64,000 nucleotides of DNA from an uncultured Candidatus Saccharibacteria bacterium (GCA_964531475.1 CAZHCS010000001.1:14712-78711), one strand, 5' to 3'; shown: positions 109 to 62,888, counted from the first letter of the stretch. The notes: generated from the letters alone by a model not told the origin. Numbers and translations are program-made.

Positions 109-993
109 TCATACAGATCTATTGTACCAAGTTATTCTGTTGTCTTTGCGAAACCATGTGCGCTGTCTTTTTGCGTACTGCCAGATTTTCGTCTTGAGAA
201 TATCTTTCATTTCGTCTTCCGAAATTTTACCCTGGAGGAACTTCGCAATGTAGCGGTATTCTAGTCCGAAGTTTTCAAGTCTTTCCCAAGAGACTCCTCC
301 GCCAGCTGGCGGATTCGCATGGAGTTTTCTTACCTCATCTACCATGCCAAGTTCGAGGCGCTTCTCGATACGTTTGGCAATGCGCTCTTTCAAGATTTCG
401 TCAGGGAAGTCGAGACCGATGAGCTCGAAATCATAGTTCTGTGGGCCGTATTTCACTGCAGGAATGACGCCGAGGGCGCGTCCGAGCTCAATAGCGCGGA
501 TAACCCGGCGTTTGTTTTCTGTGTCGATTTTTGCGCCTTCTTCTTTTGGGATGCTTAGCAGGATTTCTTGGAGTTCTTCTAGGCTTTTTCCTTGGAGCTC
601 TTTGCGAAGTATCGGATCGGCCGGAGCGGCGGGGAAAACTGGGTTATCGACGACGGCCTGGATGAAGTACCCCGTTCCGCCGCAAATGATGGGTGTCTTG
701 CCGCGAGAGAGAATTTCTTCGATTTTTTCAAAAGCGAGTCTTTGGTATTCCTCAACAGAAAAATCTTCATGCGGATCGCGAATATCTAGGAGGTGGTGGG
801 GAACACCTTTCATTTCTTTGTGGGTTATTTTCCCAGTACCAAGATCCATCCCGCGGTACACTTGGCGTGAGTCGGCCGAGATGATTTCGCCTCCGCCAGC
901 TGGCGGATTGAGCTCCAAAGTCAAATTTACAGCGTAATCAGATTTACCAGTCGCTGTCGGGCCGAGGATGATGTAAACTTTTGGCTTTTCCAT
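109..993 (-). CDS. miaA: tRNA dimethylallyltransferase (MiaA)
   Basis: 294 aa. N-terminal P-loop IILGPTATGKS and the ISADSRQVYRGMDLGTGK motif are typical of MiaA. It carries two in-frame NPPAGGG inserts. Confidence 0.85.
   Translation of the reverse strand: MEKPKVYIILGPTATGKSDYAVNLTLELNPPAGGGEIISADSRQVYRGMDLGTGKITHKEMKGVPHHLLDIRDPHEDFSVEEYQRLAFEKIEEILSRGKTPIICGGTGYFIQAVVDNPVFPAAPADPILRKELQGKSLEELQEILLSIPKEEGAKIDTENKRRVIRAIELGRALGVIPAVKYGPQNYDFELIGLDFPDEILKERIAKRIEKRLELGMVDEVRKLHANPPAGGGVSWERLENFGLEYRYIAKFLQGKISEDEMKDILKTKIWQYAKRQRTWFRKDNRITWYNRSV
296..315 (-). repeat. P1 palindromic insert CCTCCGCCAGCTGGCGGATT (copy 1), in-frame in miaA
   Basis: A 20-nt sequence identical to 890-909. Its 14-bp core CCGCCAGCTGGCGG is a perfect palindrome. 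On the coding strand it encodes NPPAGGG. Confidence 0.8.
890..909 (-). repeat. P1 palindromic insert (copy 2), in-frame in miaA
   Basis: Identical to 296-315. It encodes LNPPAGGGE, inserted just before the conserved IISADS motif. Confidence 0.8.
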
Positions 994-2999: not shown

Positions 3000-4454
3000 T
3001 TAGCGGAAGCGGTTCATAAATTTATTGAGGAGGCTGTTCTCGTCGAGATAGCGACGAATATGGCGGCGTGCAAGCGTAGTTTTGGCGGCGTCGAGCCATT
3101 TGCCATTTGGAACAGCTTTTTCGTTTGTTTCGACGACTACAATGTCGCCGTTGTGGAGTTTTGTATCCAATTTTGAATATTTGCCGTTTACTTTTGCACC
3201 ACTTGCATGGTTGCCTATATCGGAATGGATGGCGTAAGCAAAGTCGATTACCGAAGATTGCTCGGGTAGGTCGATAACGGCGCCTTTGGGGGTAAATACG
3301 AAGATACGTTTTGAGAAAAAGTCTATTTTAAGATTTTCCAAAAAGGCTGATGGTTTGGCAACGTTTTTCTGCAACTCTTTGAACTGTTCAATCCAGCCCG
3401 TGTGGGTTTGGTTTTTATTGAAACCTTCTTTGTAGGCGAAAAAAGAGGCTATACCATGCTCGGCCTGCTCGTGCATCTTAGGCGTTCTTATTTGTATTTC
3501 TACTACTCCGCCTTCGCCAGTGAAAATTGTCGTGTGCAGGCTCTTGTAGCCGTTCGGCTTTGGAAGGGCAATGAAATCTTTGATGCGACCAGGTACTGGC
3601 TTCCAAAGACCATGTATGATCCCGAGCGCCTGATAGCAGGTTTCGATAGTAGGAACAATGATGCGCAGCGCGACAATATCATAGACTTTGTCTATATCCA
3701 TGTCGCGCTTTTTTAATTTTTTATAAAGGCTATAGGTGCCCTTGACGCGTGAGCTAGTGCCAATGATAGGGACATTGTGCTTTTCGAATTCGCCCATCAG
3801 TGTTGCTCGAACATGTTCGAGATGGCTCTCGTCGCTGCGGCTTTTATGGCGGAGCAGATCTTCGACTTCGGCCGCTTCTTTGGGAAATGCGTAGGGGAAG
3901 GCTAAGTCCTCGAGCTCGCCTTTTAGTCTCCACATGCCGAGTCGGTTTGCCATCGGAGCGTGAATCTCGATAGTTTCGAGCGCGATACGTTTTTGCTTGT
4001 TTGGCGGCACGTGTTGGAGTGTTTGCATGTTGTGAAGCCTGTCTGCCAATTTGACCATGATGACGCGGACATCTTCGGCCATGGCGACGAAAAACTTGCG
4101 CAAGCTTTCGACATGGCGCTCTTCACCCCGGTATTTGACCTTGCCGAGTTTGGTTACGCCGTTTACTAGGAACAAAACGTCTGGGCCGAATTCGCGCTCG
4201 ACGTCTTCTTCGGTCGCGCGACCGTCTTCGATAGTATCGTGCAAGAGTCCGGCGATTATGGTTTTTACATCGGCACCGAGTCCGGCTAAAATTTTTCCGA
4301 CCTCGAATACATGATTGAAATACGGTTCGCCGCTGGCACGTTTTTGCCCGTCGTGAGCTTTTTCGGCAAAGTCATAGGCACGCCGGATCCAGGTTTGATC
4401 TGTTTCGCTTGGCGGGTTTGGCATTTTTGAGTAGATTTCATCGACGCGGGTCAT
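3000..4454 (-). CDS. rel: bifunctional (p)ppGpp synthetase/hydrolase Rel (RelA/SpoT family), C-terminally short
   Basis: HD hydrolase motif (HDTIEDG), synthetase motif (RIKDFIALPKPNGYKSLHTTI) and a TGS domain are present. The ACT domain is absent. The likely start is MTRVDE at 4454; the ORF-track start is 4496. Confidence 0.85.
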   Translation of the reverse strand: MTRVDEIYSKMPNPPSETDQTWIRRAYDFAEKAHDGQKRASGEPYFNHVFEVGKILAGLGADVKTIIAGLLHDTIEDGRATEEDVEREFGPDVLFLVNGVTKLGKVKYRGEERHVESLRKFFVAMAEDVRVIMVKLADRLHNMQTLQHVPPNKQKRIALETIEIHAPMANRLGMWRLKGELEDLAFPYAFPKEAAEVEDLLRHKSRSDESHLEHVRATLMGEFEKHNVPIIGTSSRVKGTYSLYKKLKKRDMDIDKVYDIVALRIIVPTIETCYQALGIIHGLWKPVPGRIKDFIALPKPNGYKSLHTTIFTGEGGVVEIQIRTPKMHEQAEHGIASFFAYKEGFNKNQTHTGWIEQFKELQKNVAKPSAFLENLKIDFFSKRIFVFTPKGAVIDLPEQSSVIDFAYAIHSDIGNHASGAKVNGKYSKLDTKLHNGDIVVVETNEKAVPNGKWLDAAKTTLARRHIRRYLDENSLLNKFMNRFR

Positions 4455-7959: not shown

Positions 7960-8220
7960 ATGAAATCAGTCAGCATTTATACGACTCCAACCTGCCATTT
8001 TTGCCAGATGGCCAAAGAATTTTTCAAGGCAAATGGTGTCGAATATAGCGAGTACAATGTTGCCGGTGACGAGGCGAAGCGCGCCGAGATGATAGAAAAG
8101 TCAGGACAGATGGGTGTGCCGGTTATTTTTGTCGGTGAAGATATGGTTATTGGTTTTAACGAGCCAAAGCTCAAGACACTTCTAGCTGACCAGATGGGCG
8201 GCATGCAGGCCGCAGCCTAA
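7960..8220 (+). CDS. glutaredoxin-like protein (NrdH/Grx family)
   Basis: MKSVSIYTTPTCHFCQ contains a CxxC active site; thioredoxin fold. An extended -10 (TGgTATAAT) lies at 7921-7929. Confidence 0.7.
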   Translation: MKSVSIYTTPTCHFCQMAKEFFKANGVEYSEYNVAGDEAKRAEMIEKSGQMGVPVIFVGEDMVIGFNEPKLKTLLADQMGGMQAAA

Positions 8221-8258: not shown

Positions 8259-8330
8259 GCCCCCATAGTTCAATGGATAGAACAGTTCCGTCCTAAGGAG
8301 TAGATGTACGTTCGATTCGTACTGGGGGCA
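8259..8330 (+). tRNA. tRNA-Arg(CCT)
   Basis: GCCCCCA/TGGGGGC acceptor, D-arm GTTCAATGGATAGAAC, anticodon loop GTCCTAA (anticodon CCT), T-arm GTACGTTCGATTCGTAC. No CCA encoded. Confidence 0.8.
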
Positions 8331-8375
8331 CACAAGCACAAAATTCCGCGTAAGCGGAATTTTGTGCTTGTGTGC
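8328..8375 (+). other. perfect 22-bp stem hairpin (GTAA loop) overlapping the last 3 nt of tRNA-Arg
   Basis: GCACACAAGCACAAAATTCCGC-GTAA-GCGGAATTTTGTGCTTGTGTGC. No U-tract follows. Confidence 0.7.
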
Positions 8376-8405
8376 CGGCCGCATAAATATGCTAAAATAT
8401 TACCC

Positions 8406-9125: not shown

Positions 9126-9130
9126 AAATC

Positions 9131-9160
9131 AAGAAAGGCCTCCATATGGAGGCCTTTCTT
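9131..9160. terminator. perfect palindromic bidirectional terminator
   Basis: AAGAAAGGCCTCC-ATAT-GGAGGCCTTTCTT, between tRNA-Phe (+) and hsp20 (-). Confidence 0.7.
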
Positions 9161-9165
9161 GATGT

Positions 9166-13568: not shown

Positions 13569-13622
13569 TACATGATGAAGAAGCGGCGGGCCGAAGGCCC
13601 GCCGCTTTTCTTTTCTATAATT

Positions 13623-14801
13623 TTACAAACTCCAATTTGGATCTGCGACGATAGTTGCAAGTTCGGGAAATGCTTTGCCACTTCGTATCAAAAAAAATCC
13701 GGCTATCGCTATCATGAGAGAATTGTCAGTCGATAGATCGTGGTCGGGGAAAACGACTTGGGTTCCAGGGAATTCCGCCCCGGCCATTTCCGTTAGGCGC
13801 TCTTTGATATATGTGTTCGCCGACACGCCGCCACCGACTATTAGAGTTGTTGCGCCGAATTCGGCTACCGCATCGCGTGTTTTTTTCACCAAAACATCGG
13901 TTACGGCCGTTTCGAATTCGCGCGCGACATCGCATTTTGTTTGTTCGTCCATTTCGCCGAGTTTTTTTACGAGATACAGAACCGAGGTTTTGATTCCGGA
14001 AAATGAAAAACTATAATCCCCCGAATTGATCATTGGCCTTGGCAAACTAATATCCGCGCGCGTGACGCCGCGTTTTGCAAGTTCAGAAACTTTTGGTCCG
14101 CCAGGGTAGGGTAACCCCAGAAGTCGCGCGACTTTGTCGAACGCCTCACCGACAGCGTCGTCTTTGGTCGCACCGATTTTTGTACATGCAAGGAAGTCGT
14201 TCATGACGACGAGCTCGGTATGGCCGCCAGAAATGAGAAGCGATATCGCAGGGAAGCGGAGGTTTGATATGTCTAGGGTTTGCGGCGTGTTTGGTGTCGC
14301 GGTGATGAGTGTCGAAAGCGCGTGCCCGTGCATATGGTTTGCCGGCATGACGGGTATGTCCCAGATTAGCGAGAGAGCTTTTGCGAAGTTGATACCGACC
14401 CACAATGCTGGTGCGAGTCCAGGACCAGCAGTGACGACGATAGCGTCAAGCGCTGGGCGTTCGATTGTGTTCGCGATTTCGAGCACCACGTCAGCCATTT
14501 TGCCTTCGCGCTCAAGGAGCCTTCTGATCTCATCCGGCCCAGTATTCAAGGTCGAACCTTGAATACTTGGATGATACATATCGGCCTGCTTCAAGCATTC
14601 GACGAAAATCGGCGGCAAGTTTTTAGCGTGTTCTCGCTTGGCCAAGTTAGGATAGACGCCGCCGAATTCGCGATGTATGTCGATCTGCGAGCGGACTACG
14701 TTCGCGAGTACGGTAAAAGTCGCCGTATTGTCCGTTTCGACGACGTCGAGGATAGAAATCGCGGTTTCGTCGCAGGATGTTTCGATAGAGAGAAGCTTCA
14801 T
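13623..14801 (-). CDS. tsaD: tRNA N6-adenosine threonylcarbamoyltransferase TsaD
   Basis: LSIETSCDETAIS, GGVSAN, LGLPYPGGP. It contains an in-frame P2 insert (PSIQGSTLNT). Confidence 0.9.
   Translation of the reverse strand: MKLLSIETSCDETAISILDVVETDNTATFTVLANVVRSQIDIHREFGGVYPNLAKREHAKNLPPIFVECLKQADMYHPSIQGSTLNTGPDEIRRLLEREGKMADVVLEIANTIERPALDAIVVTAGPGLAPALWVGINFAKALSLIWDIPVMPANHMHGHALSTLITATPNTPQTLDISNLRFPAISLLISGGHTELVVMNDFLACTKIGATKDDAVGEAFDKVARLLGLPYPGGPKVSELAKRGVTRADISLPRPMINSGDYSFSFSGIKTSVLYLVKKLGEMDEQTKCDVAREFETAVTDVLVKKTRDAVAEFGATTLIVGGGVSANTYIKERLTEMAGAEFPGTQVVFPDHDLSTDNSLMIAIAGFFLIRSGKAFPELATIVADPNWSL
14541..14571 (-). repeat. P2 palindromic insert AGTATTCAAGGTCGAACCTTGAATACTTGGA (copy 1), in-frame in tsaD
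   Basis: 31 nt identical to 25745-25775. The 11-bp stem AGTATTCAAGG/CCTTGAATACT with TCGAA loop is a perfect hairpin. It encodes PSIQGSTLNT. Confidence 0.85.
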
Positions 14802-24784: not shown

Positions 24785-26524
24785 CTAGAGCATCTCCGGG
24801 TTGATCCGGATCTGCCAATCGGGGCCGAGAGAGGCGAGGATGCTCGAGAGATGCGGGTTTTGGAATAATTCGTTCCATTCATTCTTTGCGAGCTTCATGA
24901 CGATGACGGTTTCAAATGCCTTGCCGCGTTTGATTCGGCGTGGGAGCGGGGACCAGTCGGCGAGCATGGTGAGGAGTGGTGCAGCGACGCTTTCGAAATC
25001 GTCTTTTGGAGGGATACGCGACAAGCGGACGATCGTGCCAAATGGCGGATAGCTAAACTTTTCTCGCATGAGTTTTTCTGATTCGTAAAATTTTGCGAGG
25101 TCACCACTTGTCGCGGCAATGATGGCTGGCGTGCTTGGTTCGCGGGTTTGGAGAAATACATTATCGGATAGTTTTCCGATGGCCAGCGCGAGACGGAGCA
25201 TCTTTTCATACACACGAAATGACGGAAGCGAGAGAAGTGCGTCCATGGAAATGACGGCAGCGACATCGAGGCGTTTCTCGAGGTACGGCAACGCGAGTTC
25301 CGTACCGACGAGAATCGCATTATTCGACGCGTAAAACTTTTCGATGACCTCGCGGACTTTTTTGTCAGTTTTGACTGTGTCGCCGTCGATTTGAAAAATT
25401 TCTTTTTTCGGAAATAGTTTTTCTGCTTCTTGTGCCACTGTGTCCGTGCCGATACCGAGCGAATCGAAATTCCAACTGTCGCATATAGGGCAGCGTGTGC
25501 GAGTGTCTAGTACAGTGTTAGTGAGTGGGTTGATTAGTATACGCTGGCCGCCACGTTCACGAAGTGCGAGCGGTGTATCGCCGTCTTTTAATATGTGTCC
25601 GCAATCGTGACAGACGACAGAGCTCGCCAAGCCTTTTTTGAGCGAAAAGAGAAATGCGTGCTTTGATTCGCGAACAGCTTCGAACACTGCGCTTGAAAAG
25701 ATAAAACTTTTCTTATATCGCGCTTCCTTATCACTCATGTCGCAAGTATTCAAGGTCGAACCTTGAATACTTGGAATCGGGAGATATTGTTCGACGATCG
25801 TTTCGAGTGTCGTTGGATTTTCAAATATAAGTTTTGTGTTTAGGGATTTTGCAAGTAGTCGAGCAAAGACGCGCAGGTCGAAATAGGGACGCTTGATTGT
25901 GCGGTAGGCGGCGTTGCCTTCGTCGTGAATGATGATGGTGCCAAGATCGTGTCGTGGTGTGAAAAGAAAAGTTGGCGTCATAACGACGGTAATAGGATTT
26001 GTGCACTCTAATATTTCCTTGTAACGGGCGAAAAGAGTTTTCTTGCGCAAGCTTCCATGAATAATGAATGTTCTATCGAGGTCGAACTTCGATAGATTTT
26101 CATAAAGTTTTTCGGCGGCGCGGACGGTCGGCGCGATATGAAAGATAGTTGTGCCGACCGTCCGCGCCGCCGGTTTCGGCAACTCTTGGTGCTTGGTCAA
26201 GAACTCCGACGGAATAAAATAATTGATGATCTGGCCCAAGTTTCCAGCCGAAAAATCACGCGCGGCGCGGCACCCTTCGAAAAATTCTCTATAGAAGGGT
26301 GCCGCGCCGCGCTTCTCGCGCACTTTCCGTAATGCAAAATCAGAACCTTTGACATCTATCTTTCTTTTCGCCAAGTCGTCAACCGCGACTACTAGTGCAT
26401 CATAGGTTTTTTTTCGTATGTCTATAGACACGATATCGCCGACACTAATATCTTTGGACGAAAAATAGGTGAGCGAGTCTTTCGCGACTTTGTCGGTGAT
26501 TGGTGAGACTTCGATAAGCTTCAT
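24785..26524 (-). CDS. primosomal protein N' (PriA)-like, with degenerate helicase motifs
   Basis: The N-terminal 3'-DNA-binding-like region and the Cys-rich zinc-binding region (CHDCGH...CPICDSW) align to PriA. HIAPTVRAA stands where Walker A GxGKT should be, and IIIHDEG replaces DEEH. It carries an in-frame P2 insert. Confidence 0.55.
   Translation of the reverse strand: MKLIEVSPITDKVAKDSLTYFSSKDISVGDIVSIDIRKKTYDALVVAVDDLAKRKIDVKGSDFALRKVREKRGAAPFYREFFEGCRAARDFSAGNLGQIINYFIPSEFLTKHQELPKPAARTVGTTIFHIAPTVRAAEKLYENLSKFDLDRTFIIHGSLRKKTLFARYKEILECTNPITVVMTPTFLFTPRHDLGTIIIHDEGNAAYRTIKRPYFDLRVFARLLAKSLNTKLIFENPTTLETIVEQYLPIPSIQGSTLNTCDMSDKEARYKKSFIFSSAVFEAVRESKHAFLFSLKKGLASSVVCHDCGHILKDGDTPLALRERGGQRILINPLTNTVLDTRTRCPICDSWNFDSLGIGTDTVAQEAEKLFPKKEIFQIDGDTVKTDKKVREVIEKFYASNNAILVGTELALPYLEKRLDVAAVISMDALLSLPSFRVYEKMLRLALAIGKLSDNVFLQTREPSTPAIIAATSGDLAKFYESEKLMREKFSYPPFGTIVRLSRIPPKDDFESVAAPLLTMLADWSPLPRRIKRGKAFETVIVMKLAKNEWNELFQNPHLSSILASLGPDWQIRINPEML
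25745..25775 (-). repeat. P2 palindromic insert (copy 2), in-frame in the priA-like gene
   Basis: Identical 31 nt to 14541-14571. Encodes PSIQGSTLNT within ...EQYLPIPSIQGSTLNTCDMS... Confidence 0.85.
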
Positions 26525-26639: not shown

Positions 26640-26676
26640 ATTCATAATGCCATTCTACCATTTCCAGCAAACAAAA

Positions 26677-26698
26677 AGCCCCGAGCGCGCTCGGGGCT
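26677..26698. terminator. perfect palindromic terminator
   Basis: AGCCCCGAGC-GC-GCTCGGGGCT, with a T-run on the minus strand. Confidence 0.65.
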
Positions 26699-26699
26699 T

Positions 26700-27197
26700 T
26701 CAGTACGTAGCAAGGACTTGTTGCACCATGACCCAACGATGCTCTTTGCGGTCACGTTGACCCTTGTTACAGGGGTAGAAATATGAGTGATAGGTGCAGT
26801 AAATCGGCATCTCCCATGTTTCATTCGGTGATCGGAATGCGAGGCAGCTTCGGTGGTTGGATTCTGTCGTAGGCTTAGCGAGATCGGCCATGCATATCAA
26901 GATCTTGTCGGCGATATCGAAATTGCGACTACTTATAACCGACGTAAAGAATCTGAATTGTTGCCTATCCACGGGTACCATGTTTAGAGCTGCAAGTTTG
27001 CTCGCGTAGTTGCCCGGTTCGAAGGTGCTGATACTTATCAGAAAAAGCGGTAGACGGGTCAAGCGCAAGGGCTCGACTTTCGTCTTGAAAATCGGCTCGG
27101 TTACGCGATCCATCTTTATTGGTTTTGCTTCATCTATACCACATTCCTTCCCAAAAAAGAACCGCCCGAGCCGGCGATTGTCAATAGTCGTGTACAA
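26700..27197 (-). CDS. hypothetical protein
   Basis: 165-aa ORF. The C-terminus is His/Cys/Tyr-rich (WEMPIYCTYHSYFYPCNKG). Confidence 0.4.
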   Translation of the reverse strand: MYTTIDNRRLGRFFFGKECGIDEAKPIKMDRVTEPIFKTKVEPLRLTRLPLFLISISTFEPGNYASKLAALNMVPVDRQQFRFFTSVISSRNFDIADKILICMADLAKPTTESNHRSCLAFRSPNETWEMPIYCTYHSYFYPCNKGQRDRKEHRWVMVQQVLATY

Positions 27198-53064: not shown

Positions 53065-53082
53065 CCCCGGCAATTGCCGGGG
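53065..53082. terminator. perfect palindrome CCCCGGCAATTGCCGGGG between dnaK (+) and the minus-strand membrane-protein gene
   Basis: A T-rich run follows on the minus strand only. Confidence 0.5.
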
Positions 53083-60903: not shown

Positions 60904-60988
60904 GAGGGGATTGTAGCACGGAGCGGCGGGCCCGGGGCCCGCCGCTTCAATTGGGGAAAGAGTGGAAAATGGGGAAAAACATTTGGTA

Positions 60989-62843: not shown

Positions 62844-62888
62844 GAAGCCGGGCTGGGGTGATGCAAAGCATCACCCCAGCCCGGCTTC
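62844..62888 (+). terminator. long perfect hairpin terminator (21-bp stem, AAA loop)
   Basis: GAAGCCGGGCTGGGGTGATGC-aaa-GCATCACCCCAGCCCGGCTTC followed by TTGCTTTTCC. Confidence 0.7.

Follow-up and report, generated by a model that had tools for sequence, protein, structure and literature searches.

A 64,000-nt stretch of DNA from an uncultured Candidatus Saccharibacteria bacterium (GCA_964531475.1, CAZHCS010000001.1:14712-78711; the whole stretch is referred to below as the window) contains a miaA gene, encoding tRNA dimethylallyltransferase, in which a 16-nt palindrome, TCCGCCAGCTGGCGGA, occurs twice. The two copies are probably insertions of a miniature GC-rich palindromic element that has this 16-mer as its unit and is translated and tolerated by its host gene. 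The features concerned are as follows.

109 to 993, minus strand: miaA, host of both copies; an open reading frame (ORF) of 294 aa, with matches to Pfam IPPT (3e-65) and to the solved MiaA structures 2qgn (3e-54) and 3d3q (8e-50)
892 to 907, no strand assigned: N-terminal-site copy (N site) of the 16-nt palindrome TCCGCCAGCTGGCGGA, within the shared 20-mer at 890-909; net 15-nt insertion at 892-906
298 to 313, no strand assigned: copy of TCCGCCAGCTGGCGGA at the site in the C-terminal third (C site), within the shared 20-mer at 296-315; net 15-nt insertion at 298-312

A first-pass annotation, made from the sequence of the window, had reported that a 20-mer, CCTCCGCCAGCTGGCGGATT, occurs twice and in frame inside miaA. 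This was confirmed, with exact plus-strand matches at 296-315 and 890-909, both within the ORF at 109-993. Allowing up to three mismatches revealed no third match in the window (shuffled sequences are expected to give 0), and the 14-nt core matched only at these two miaA sites when up to two mismatches were allowed. The dyad is perfect, as had been claimed, but extends beyond the 14 bp originally given to 16 nt, i.e. TCCGCCAGCTGGCGGA. On the coding strand both copies read AAT CCG CCA GCT GGC GGA GGN, which specifies N-PPAGG-G at residues 29-35 and 227-233. The annotation had taken all 20 nt, encoding NPPAGGG, as the insert; the in-frame insertion stands but its size does not, since the unit is of 15-16 nt, adds PPAGG, and is flanked by an Asn and a Gly that are native. 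In the miaA gene of the window the net insertion is exactly 15 nt, CCGCCAGCTGGCGGA, placed between the native AAT (Asn) and GGN (Gly) codons.

At the N site, PPAGG forms residues 30-34, between native Asn29 and Gly35 and directly ahead of the EIISADS strand, in agreement with the annotated position just before IISADS. The other copy had been placed near the C-terminus; its PPAGG forms residues 228-232, between native Asn227 and Gly233, at ∼78% of the length of MiaA. Both native sites are Asn-Gly turns. An AlphaFold2 model of MiaA, built on the orthologue alignment (mean pLDDT 84, pTM 0.81), locates residues 30-34 between the P-loop helix (17-27) and the EIISADS strand (35-39), and residues 228-232 between helices 217-226 and 236-240, in a loop in each case. 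The solved MiaA structures have gaps of 5 and 4 residues, respectively, at these positions. Both inserts are thus predicted by the model to lie in loops. The conservation of the reading frame leads us to predict that PPAGG is translated as an extension of the two loops. The element is probably without function for MiaA. When folded as RNA, TCCGCCAGCTGGCGGA gives a 6-bp stem with an AGCU tetraloop (-11 kcal/mol), and this hairpin may have side effects on the miaA mRNA.

Filled and empty miaA alleles

Orthologues were compiled as a set of 35, then of 120, close Patescibacteria/Paceibacterota MiaA proteins showing 55-94% identity to that of the window. The N site lacked an insert in 104 of 119 orthologues and the C site in 102 of 110; 15 and 8 proteins, respectively, were filled in the set of 121. 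Empty orthologues read ..LEKN^GEIIS.. at the N site (the caret marks the insertion point) and ..LHxxG(V/I)SW.. at the C site, e.g. LHANGVSW or LHESGISW. The sites differed even between very similar genes. The closest orthologue, P0001 (94% identical to the window in protein and 93% in DNA), is filled at the C site and empty at the N site, while P0002 (90% nucleotide identity) is empty at both. In a second clade, with nucleotide identities of 88-94%, P0010 has both copies, P0020 that at the N site only, and P0037 none. The corresponding empty N-site alleles are AAA AAC^GGC in P0001 and AAA AAT^GGT in P0002. On quick neighbour-joining trees of this one protein, calculated after removing the insert columns, at least 13 changes of state were required for the N site and at least 7 for the C site. 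The occurrence of filled and empty alleles among close relatives shows the inserts to be lineage-specific, a point that the first-pass annotation had proposed to check.

The DNA encoding PPAGG is CCG CCA GCT GGC GGA in the window and in 10 orthologues, with one exception that starts CCG CCG. The filled genes are otherwise only 64-76% identical in nucleotides between clades, and the codons that flank the insert vary at synonymous sites. Since the nucleotides of the insert are constant while those of neighbouring synonymous sites are not, protein-level selection can be ruled out as the source of the identity. No orthologue was found to encode the same residues with non-palindromic DNA; the only differing versions were mutated ones (PPTGG, PLAGE, PPNGG, PPAGR and LPAGG), which indicates that old copies decay. 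The junctions were also diverse, reading LxN-PPAGG-GE, LN-PPAGG-SGE, KNI-PPAGG-GE or MCN-PPAGG-E at the N site, and HAN-, HN-, HEN- or HSN- ahead of the insert at the C site. These differences between lineages imply at least four events per site.

These data bear on the idea that the ancestor of this MiaA clade already had PPAGG loops, which then disappeared several times, with codon preference accounting for the nucleotide identity. Palindromes are known to be deletion-prone, which would favour repeated loss. However, five codons in a row share their third positions in genes that are only 64-76% identical in nucleotides, the insert is absent from all solved MiaA structures and from most orthologues, the junction registers differ, and TCCGCCAGCTGGCGGA is also present in unrelated genes and phyla. 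An ancestral origin is therefore very improbable.

Six proteins had both sites filled, while ∼1 would be expected (hypergeometric P = 5.6e-5, a value that is only indicative because the sequences are related). This excess would suit a scenario in which one miaA copy arrived from elsewhere and the other was templated from it by short-range switching between the two AAT^GG (Asn-Gly) sites. The empty alleles already carry AAT^GG, and the AAT and GG are shared beyond the palindrome, so that 20 nt are identical in the two copies. This identity requires no copying, however, because AAT and GG are the native Asn and Gly codons. Each site can also be filled alone, since P0001 has only the C-site copy while P0006, P0009, P0020, P0024 and P0068 have only that at the N site. 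Genomes with an active element would account for the co-occurrence just as well, and the sequences are not phylogenetically independent. We consider copying within the gene possible, though on balance rather doubtful.

The sporadic internal indels of MiaA were all confined to four loops in the orthologue alignment, each with its own recurrent peptide.

Loop 1, after residue 28/29: PPAGG
Loop 2, after residue 60: LPAQAG (P0068, P0070 and P0083)
Loop 3, after residues 225-233: PPAGG, or a longer PKSTHVR.FRIN insert
Loop 4, after residue 261: (D/N)LSDQ.GR or LPADEAW

A palindrome was predicted from the LPAQAG peptide of loop 2, and the DNA confirmed it. This is CCTGCCTGCGCAGGCAGG, an 18-nt perfect palindrome found at 8126-8143 of locus L006 (and also in L007) as a clean insertion within a GAA codon (GA^A) of miaA. 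The longer insert of loop 3 is a 22-27-residue segment, ..PKSTHVR(E/K)FRIN.., present in P0062 and P0082. That of loop 4 has 7-8 residues, (D/N)LSDQ(E/K)G(R/W) or LPADEAW, and was seen in P0024, P0028, P0034, P0046, P0067 and P0099-P0101; the one DNA copy examined (L008) showed no clear palindrome.

Copies in other genes and genomes

When a genome collection was scanned for ATCCGCCAGCTGGCGGA, taking one genome per species, at least 120 loci were found. Among the matches listed, 44 loci belong to Patescibacteria of many classes and 36 to Bacteroidota, the others being from Cloacimonadota, Elusimicrobiota and further groups. In about 20 high-GC genomes among them, the sequence is simply that of an ordinary peptide, IRQLA(D/E). 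The palindrome was also present in genomes of cultured isolates, namely the Bacteroidota Mucilaginibacter flavidus, Niastella sp. OAS944 and Chryseosolibacter indicus. The lack of further genomic copies would have told against a mobile repeat; copies were instead found in many other genes and genomes. The idea that short palindromic elements are tolerated in frame in conserved genes thus gained support both from these copies and from the filled and empty close orthologues of miaA.

In Patescibacteria, 30 of the 48 copies listed lie in long ORFs, where they read PPAGG in 24 cases, SASWR in 4 and IRQLA in 2. This frame bias is the one to be expected if a palindrome free of stops inserts at random and selection then filters the copies, the Pro/Ala/Gly reading being compatible with loops. 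In Bacteroidota, 39 of the 48 copies listed fall outside long ORFs, often within larger repeats. One such array occupies 4900-8000 of L021, from a Cyclobacteriaceae metagenome-assembled genome; it is non-coding and made of imperfect tandem units of ∼400 nt, four of which contain the perfect 16-mer and one a version with 2 mismatches. Two or more copies were present within 8 kb at 16 of the loci listed, a number that cannot be due to chance.

An unbiased survey of indels of at least 3 aa between the window and four syntenic loci yielded ∼50 indels, and stems of at least 8 bp were found only at the palindromic inserts. The survey also revealed that an aminotransferase gene carries PPAGG in L132 and lacks it in L131. 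Other GC-rich palindromes recur in loci that carry TCCGCCAGCTGGCGGA, an example being the 20-mer CCTGCCTGCCGGCAGGCAGG, which is related to CCTGCCTGCGCAGGCAGG; in L022, L032 and L077 it is intergenic. We consider it likely, as part of the same reading as that given for the miaA copies and with no greater confidence, that TCCGCCAGCTGGCGGA is one of a set of similar palindromes of 16-20 nt distributed across Patescibacteria, Bacteroidota and some other low-GC lineages. The proposal of a palindrome family in the first-pass annotation is supported by copies among orthologues and in other genomes; within the window, TCCGCCAGCTGGCGGA is limited to the two miaA copies.

Most of the sources are metagenome assemblies, which might raise the suspicion of a linker, a chimera or some other assembly or sequencing artefact, or of a mere chance repeat. 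The probability of this is negligible. Shuffled sequences are expected to give 0 matches, independent data sets (Logan, ENA, NCBI and the JGI) show the palindrome in frame at the homologous codons, it is carried by genomes of cultured isolates, and decayed variants of it exist.

Junctions, a proposed mechanism and alternative roles

Comparison of filled and empty sites showed no target duplication at any filled site and the loss of 1-8 target bases. The clean miaA cases gained 15 nt at AAT^GGC or AAT^GGT. A gain of 12 nt was seen at the C site of P0117 and in P0102, where the target Gly codon is GGA; this is explained by the ability of GGA to supply the end of the palindrome. In the aminotransferase gene (L132 compared with L131) the gain was 9 nt. 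Two non-coding comparisons, which are free of reading-frame selection, both showed the 16-mer in place of 8 nt. In one of them, a pseudo-tRNA-Lys in L049, GGTAGA-GCAACTGC-CTTTT became GGTAGA followed by the 16-mer and CTTTT. In the other, a MITE-like repeat (MITE, miniature inverted-repeat transposable element) of M. flavidus, several empty copies read GAACGA-AGCAACCT-CTACG and three arms are filled. The net gains correspond to 16 minus 1, 4, 7 or 8, which fits the insertion of a whole 16-mer with the loss of a few target bases. Such a 'delins' signature is typical of break repair or template switching. It is untypical of DDE transposition, which duplicates its target, and of insertion of the IS200/IS605 type, in which no target bases are lost.

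The pseudo-tRNA, at 3985-4045 of L049, is a partial 5′ copy of tRNA-Lys(UUU) that lies 100 nt upstream of the intact gene (4120-4196) and is otherwise identical to it; GCAACTGC spans the D-stem and the anticodon stem. The partial duplication suggests an integration scar. The M. flavidus repeat (strain RT5R15) is present in several copies at 2200-7200 of L047, its inverted arms hold a widespread motif, CGTCATTGCGAGGAACGAAGCAAC, and one copy adjoins a small GIY-YIG-like ORF (3812-4117; assigned by eye). The same hairpin motif, CATTGCGA, hosts the palindrome in both Patescibacteria (L055 and L104) and Bacteroidota (L059 and L109).

Flanking stems of at least 5 bp were present at 21% of copies and at 6% of control positions, and the enrichment was 3- to 6-fold. 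Some copies sit at the tip of evident terminators, and stems made of TCCGCC/GGCGGA were also found with other tetraloops. The half-site TCCGCCAG, considered as a possible end of a longer transposon, occurred 40 times outside full copies, the control median being 9 and the control maximum 36. In 125 oriented copies the composition of the flanks, examined position by position, showed no conserved tag and only a weak excess of GA after the unit. The ORFs lying between 8 paired copies, inspected by eye over their first 60 residues and without a Pfam scan, had nothing obvious in common and included no obvious transposase. An origin de novo through local inverted duplication was rejected, the empty sites having no half-palindrome.

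The unit has been written into miaA at two Asn^Gly turns, in frame. We propose that genic copies survive only if their net length is a multiple of three, their frame is that of Pro-Pro-Ala-Gly-Gly, and their site is a permissive loop; a filter of this kind would account both for the marked preference for one frame and for the recurrence of inserts in the same loops. With less confidence, we suggest that no classical transposase would be involved and that the unit would be patched in during the repair of a break or a stalled fork. Its source would be either a second copy in the genome, used by way of microhomology or template switching, or a self-complementary duplex that is captured. The grounds for this suggestion are the lack of target duplication, the replacement of 1-8 bases, and a moderate excess of copies in hairpin loops that were already present. 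A wider generalisation is offered tentatively, as a possibility that we rate below the insertion reading: TCCGCCAGCTGGCGGA, CCTGCCTGCGCAGGCAGG and CCTGCCTGCCGGCAGGCAGG may represent an undescribed class of ultra-small self-complementary modules that spread with none of the hallmarks of transposons, being patched into breaks or hairpin loops and replacing a few bases, that are shared by Patescibacteria, Bacteroidota and other uncultivated lineages, and that are a major source of loop indels in Patescibacteria proteins.

Several observations weigh against reading the palindrome as an insertion element. The window holds only two copies in 64 kb, both in one gene, and no mobilising enzyme or donor copy was found. 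The counts from the genome collection stand without a composition-matched control from that collection; in the viral contigs of IMG/VR, the palindrome was found at 55 loci while two composition-matched control palindromes were found at 91 and 94. The mechanism draws on a handful of comparisons between filled and empty sites, and the class B MiaA sites and the aminotransferase case call for a further indel or for an ancestral state that was not seen. That the insert is translated is deduced from the conservation of frame. Finally, the reuse of the same two loops in many lineages, together with the perfect conservation of the 16-mer, could mean that the DNA or RNA has a function under selection, or that insertion is targeted in a homing-like manner, instead of being neutral and followed by filtering. 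As for phages as carriers, the IMG/VR matches were not enriched and lay mostly in GC-rich contigs, and this option was discarded.

A selected function would require the palindrome to be a cis-acting site needed at those places, whether bound or cleaved by a dimeric protein (a nuclease, a recombinase, a partition protein or a regulator) or acting as a functional RNA hairpin. It is attractive that the 16-bp dyad is perfect, that its sequence, and not only its pairing, is conserved across lineages, that the same loops beside highly conserved motifs are used repeatedly, and that a parB gene lies 1 kb away in a window with no canonical parS. The presence of the palindrome is nevertheless sporadic even between genes that are 90-94% identical, decayed copies persist, and copies are found between genes, in genes that are unrelated, within other repeats and in a pseudo-tRNA. 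At the syntenic locus L131, parB is present but 20 kb contain no copy. No Rfam family corresponds to the palindrome, CAGCTG is not avoided in the window, and 2 copies per 64 kb are far too sparse for an uptake or Chi-type signal. A cis-acting role, including the nuclease or recombinase site that the first-pass annotation had named as an alternative, is thus unlikely. In a possible homing-like variant of it, a nuclease acting in trans would cut empty alleles and repair would copy the filled one.

Specific roles were also considered individually. The parB gene is located at 1971-2993 of the window. TCCGCCAGCTGGCGGA is unrelated to TGTTNCACGTGAAACA, the 16-bp parS consensus, which had no site in the window at up to three mismatches (there was one unrelated match with four, at 13963). 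Among the syntenic loci, L002 and L131 had no parS match at up to four mismatches, and L006 and L132 had only four-mismatch matches. The syntenic relatives other than L131 have 0-2 copies of the palindrome. A centromere-like role is not supported because the palindrome is missing from the L131 locus despite its parB gene, and presence elsewhere, including near parB, is inconstant. CAGCTG, the PvuII-type site, was observed 13 times in the window for 8.2 expected; since it is not avoided, a PvuII-like restriction-modification system is unlikely. A DNA uptake or Chi-type signal was discarded on density, such signals occurring about once per 1-5 kb. Searches with Rfam 15 at the gathering score, in the window and in 10 palindrome loci, found tRNAs only, which discards the known structured RNAs.

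Other repeats of the window, known systems and significance

The window contains 13 perfect palindromes of at least 14 nt, while dinucleotide shuffles have 4.8 ± 2.2. Part of this excess is due to terminator-like intergenic hairpins, perfect and of 18-50 nt, at 8327-8376, 9128-9163, 26675-26700, 53065-53082 and 62844-62888, two of which are directly 3′ of tRNA genes. The other repeated palindromes of the window are a hairpin family found in frame in two genes and a GC-rich, terminator-like intergenic hairpin.

14541 to 14567, minus strand: hairpin AGTATTCAAGGT CGA ACCTTGAATACT (12-bp stem, 3-nt loop) in tsaD (13623-14801), encoding PSIQGSTLNT in a variable loop; RNA fold z -3.7
25745 to 25771, minus strand: second copy of the AGTATTCAAGGT-CGA-ACCTTGAATACT hairpin, in the ORF at 24785-26524, encoding PSIQGSTLNT at about residue 250; RNA fold z -6.2
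13580 to 13606 and 60922 to 60948: GC-rich hairpins with arms AGCGGCGGGCC/GGCCCGCCGCT and differing loops, intergenic, just downstream of convergent gene ends

The two genic copies are identical over 31 nt (14541-14571 and 25745-25775). The second lies in an unannotated ORF of 579 aa with no Pfam match. Among 60 TsaD orthologues, PSIQGSTLNT was found only in P0121, whose TsaD is 100% identical, with P0134 and P0145 carrying a related QG(R/P)TL; the rarity of the peptide implies that this family is sporadic too. The loop that bears the hairpin is of similar length in all 60 orthologues, and the family appears to replace TsaD loop sequence instead of adding to it. A scan of JGI metagenomes gave a single match, intergenic, at 3465-3491 of L373. 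The variable loop is at the start of a ∼38-residue insertion (TsaD residues 76-116) relative to solved bacterial TsaD, which is common to all close Patescibacteria orthologues. The AGCGGCGGGCC/GGCCCGCCGCT hairpins resemble terminators; a T-run follows the copy at 13580-13606 and none follows that at 60922-60948.

The first-pass annotation had likened the miaA inserts to Rickettsia palindromic elements (RPEs), only much shorter, and the in-frame, lineage-specific inserts with a unit of 16 nt agree with this. Elements of the RPE class are of ∼100-200 bp and bear terminal inverted repeats of 12 bp; RPEs themselves are restricted to Rickettsia (PMC2229807). Like the element described here, RPEs are palindromic, occur in intergenic regions and in frame in conserved genes, are translated and tolerated, and are lineage-specific and decaying (Ogata et al. 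2000, as summarised in PMC2229807). Unlike RPEs, which measure roughly 100-150 bp and add some 30-50 residues, TCCGCCAGCTGGCGGA is a single perfect dyad of 16 nt that adds 4-5 residues (12-15 nt net), bears no sequence relation to RPEs, and is present in several phyla. The likeness is functional only.

The GC clusters of yeast mitochondria and the 'byp' elements of Magnusiomyces are also short GC-rich palindromes of AT-rich genomes that are sometimes found in coding sequence and are presumed to be mobile. They are organellar and of 30-50 nt; some classes are reported to duplicate their target, and byp is skipped by the ribosome. No ribosomal bypass is needed for the PPAGG inserts because they are always in frame. 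HIP1 of cyanobacteria (GCGATCGC) is an over-represented GC-rich palindrome of 8 nt that arises by substitution within existing codons; it is similarly tolerated in coding sequence, whereas TCCGCCAGCTGGCGGA adds residues by insertion.

Repetitive extragenic palindromic (REP) sequences are imperfect palindromes of 20-40 nt that are extragenic and species-specific, have a GTAG/CGTC tag, and are mobilised, as are REPINs, by RAYT (Y1/HUH) transposases (PMC3733652). REP/REPIN sequences resemble TCCGCCAGCTGGCGGA in being short, non-autonomous hairpin repeats that cause no target duplication and are nested in or near other hairpins. They differ from it in that the 125 oriented copies of TCCGCCAGCTGGCGGA have no GTAG/CGTC tag and in that most of the Patescibacteria copies listed (30 of 48) are in long ORFs. 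The bacterial MITEs (Correia/NEMIS, ERIC, RUP and YPAL) are of 100-200 bp, have terminal inverted repeats, duplicate a TA target, and derive from insertion sequences (PMC2229807). They too are non-autonomous and can fuse in frame to ORFs, and some insert at dyad symmetry; in contrast, insertions of TCCGCCAGCTGGCGGA cause no duplication and replace 1-8 target bases. Full-text searches of the searchable literature with the exact 14-mer, the 16-mer and NPPAGG returned no description of the element, many subscription papers being outside their scope.

If the insertion reading is correct, TCCGCCAGCTGGCGGA would be the shortest repeat known to act as an insertion element of coding sequences, about ten times shorter than RPEs or MITEs, and the replacement of target bases without duplication would point to a mechanism unlike the known transposition pathways. 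The occurrence of one sequence in unrelated phyla would raise the question of what carries the palindrome and of which enzyme or repair pathway writes it. The element would also provide a concrete source for many of the small, lineage-specific loop insertions of Patescibacteria (CPR) proteins, and such inserts can confound the alignments, phylogenies and structure predictions made with them.

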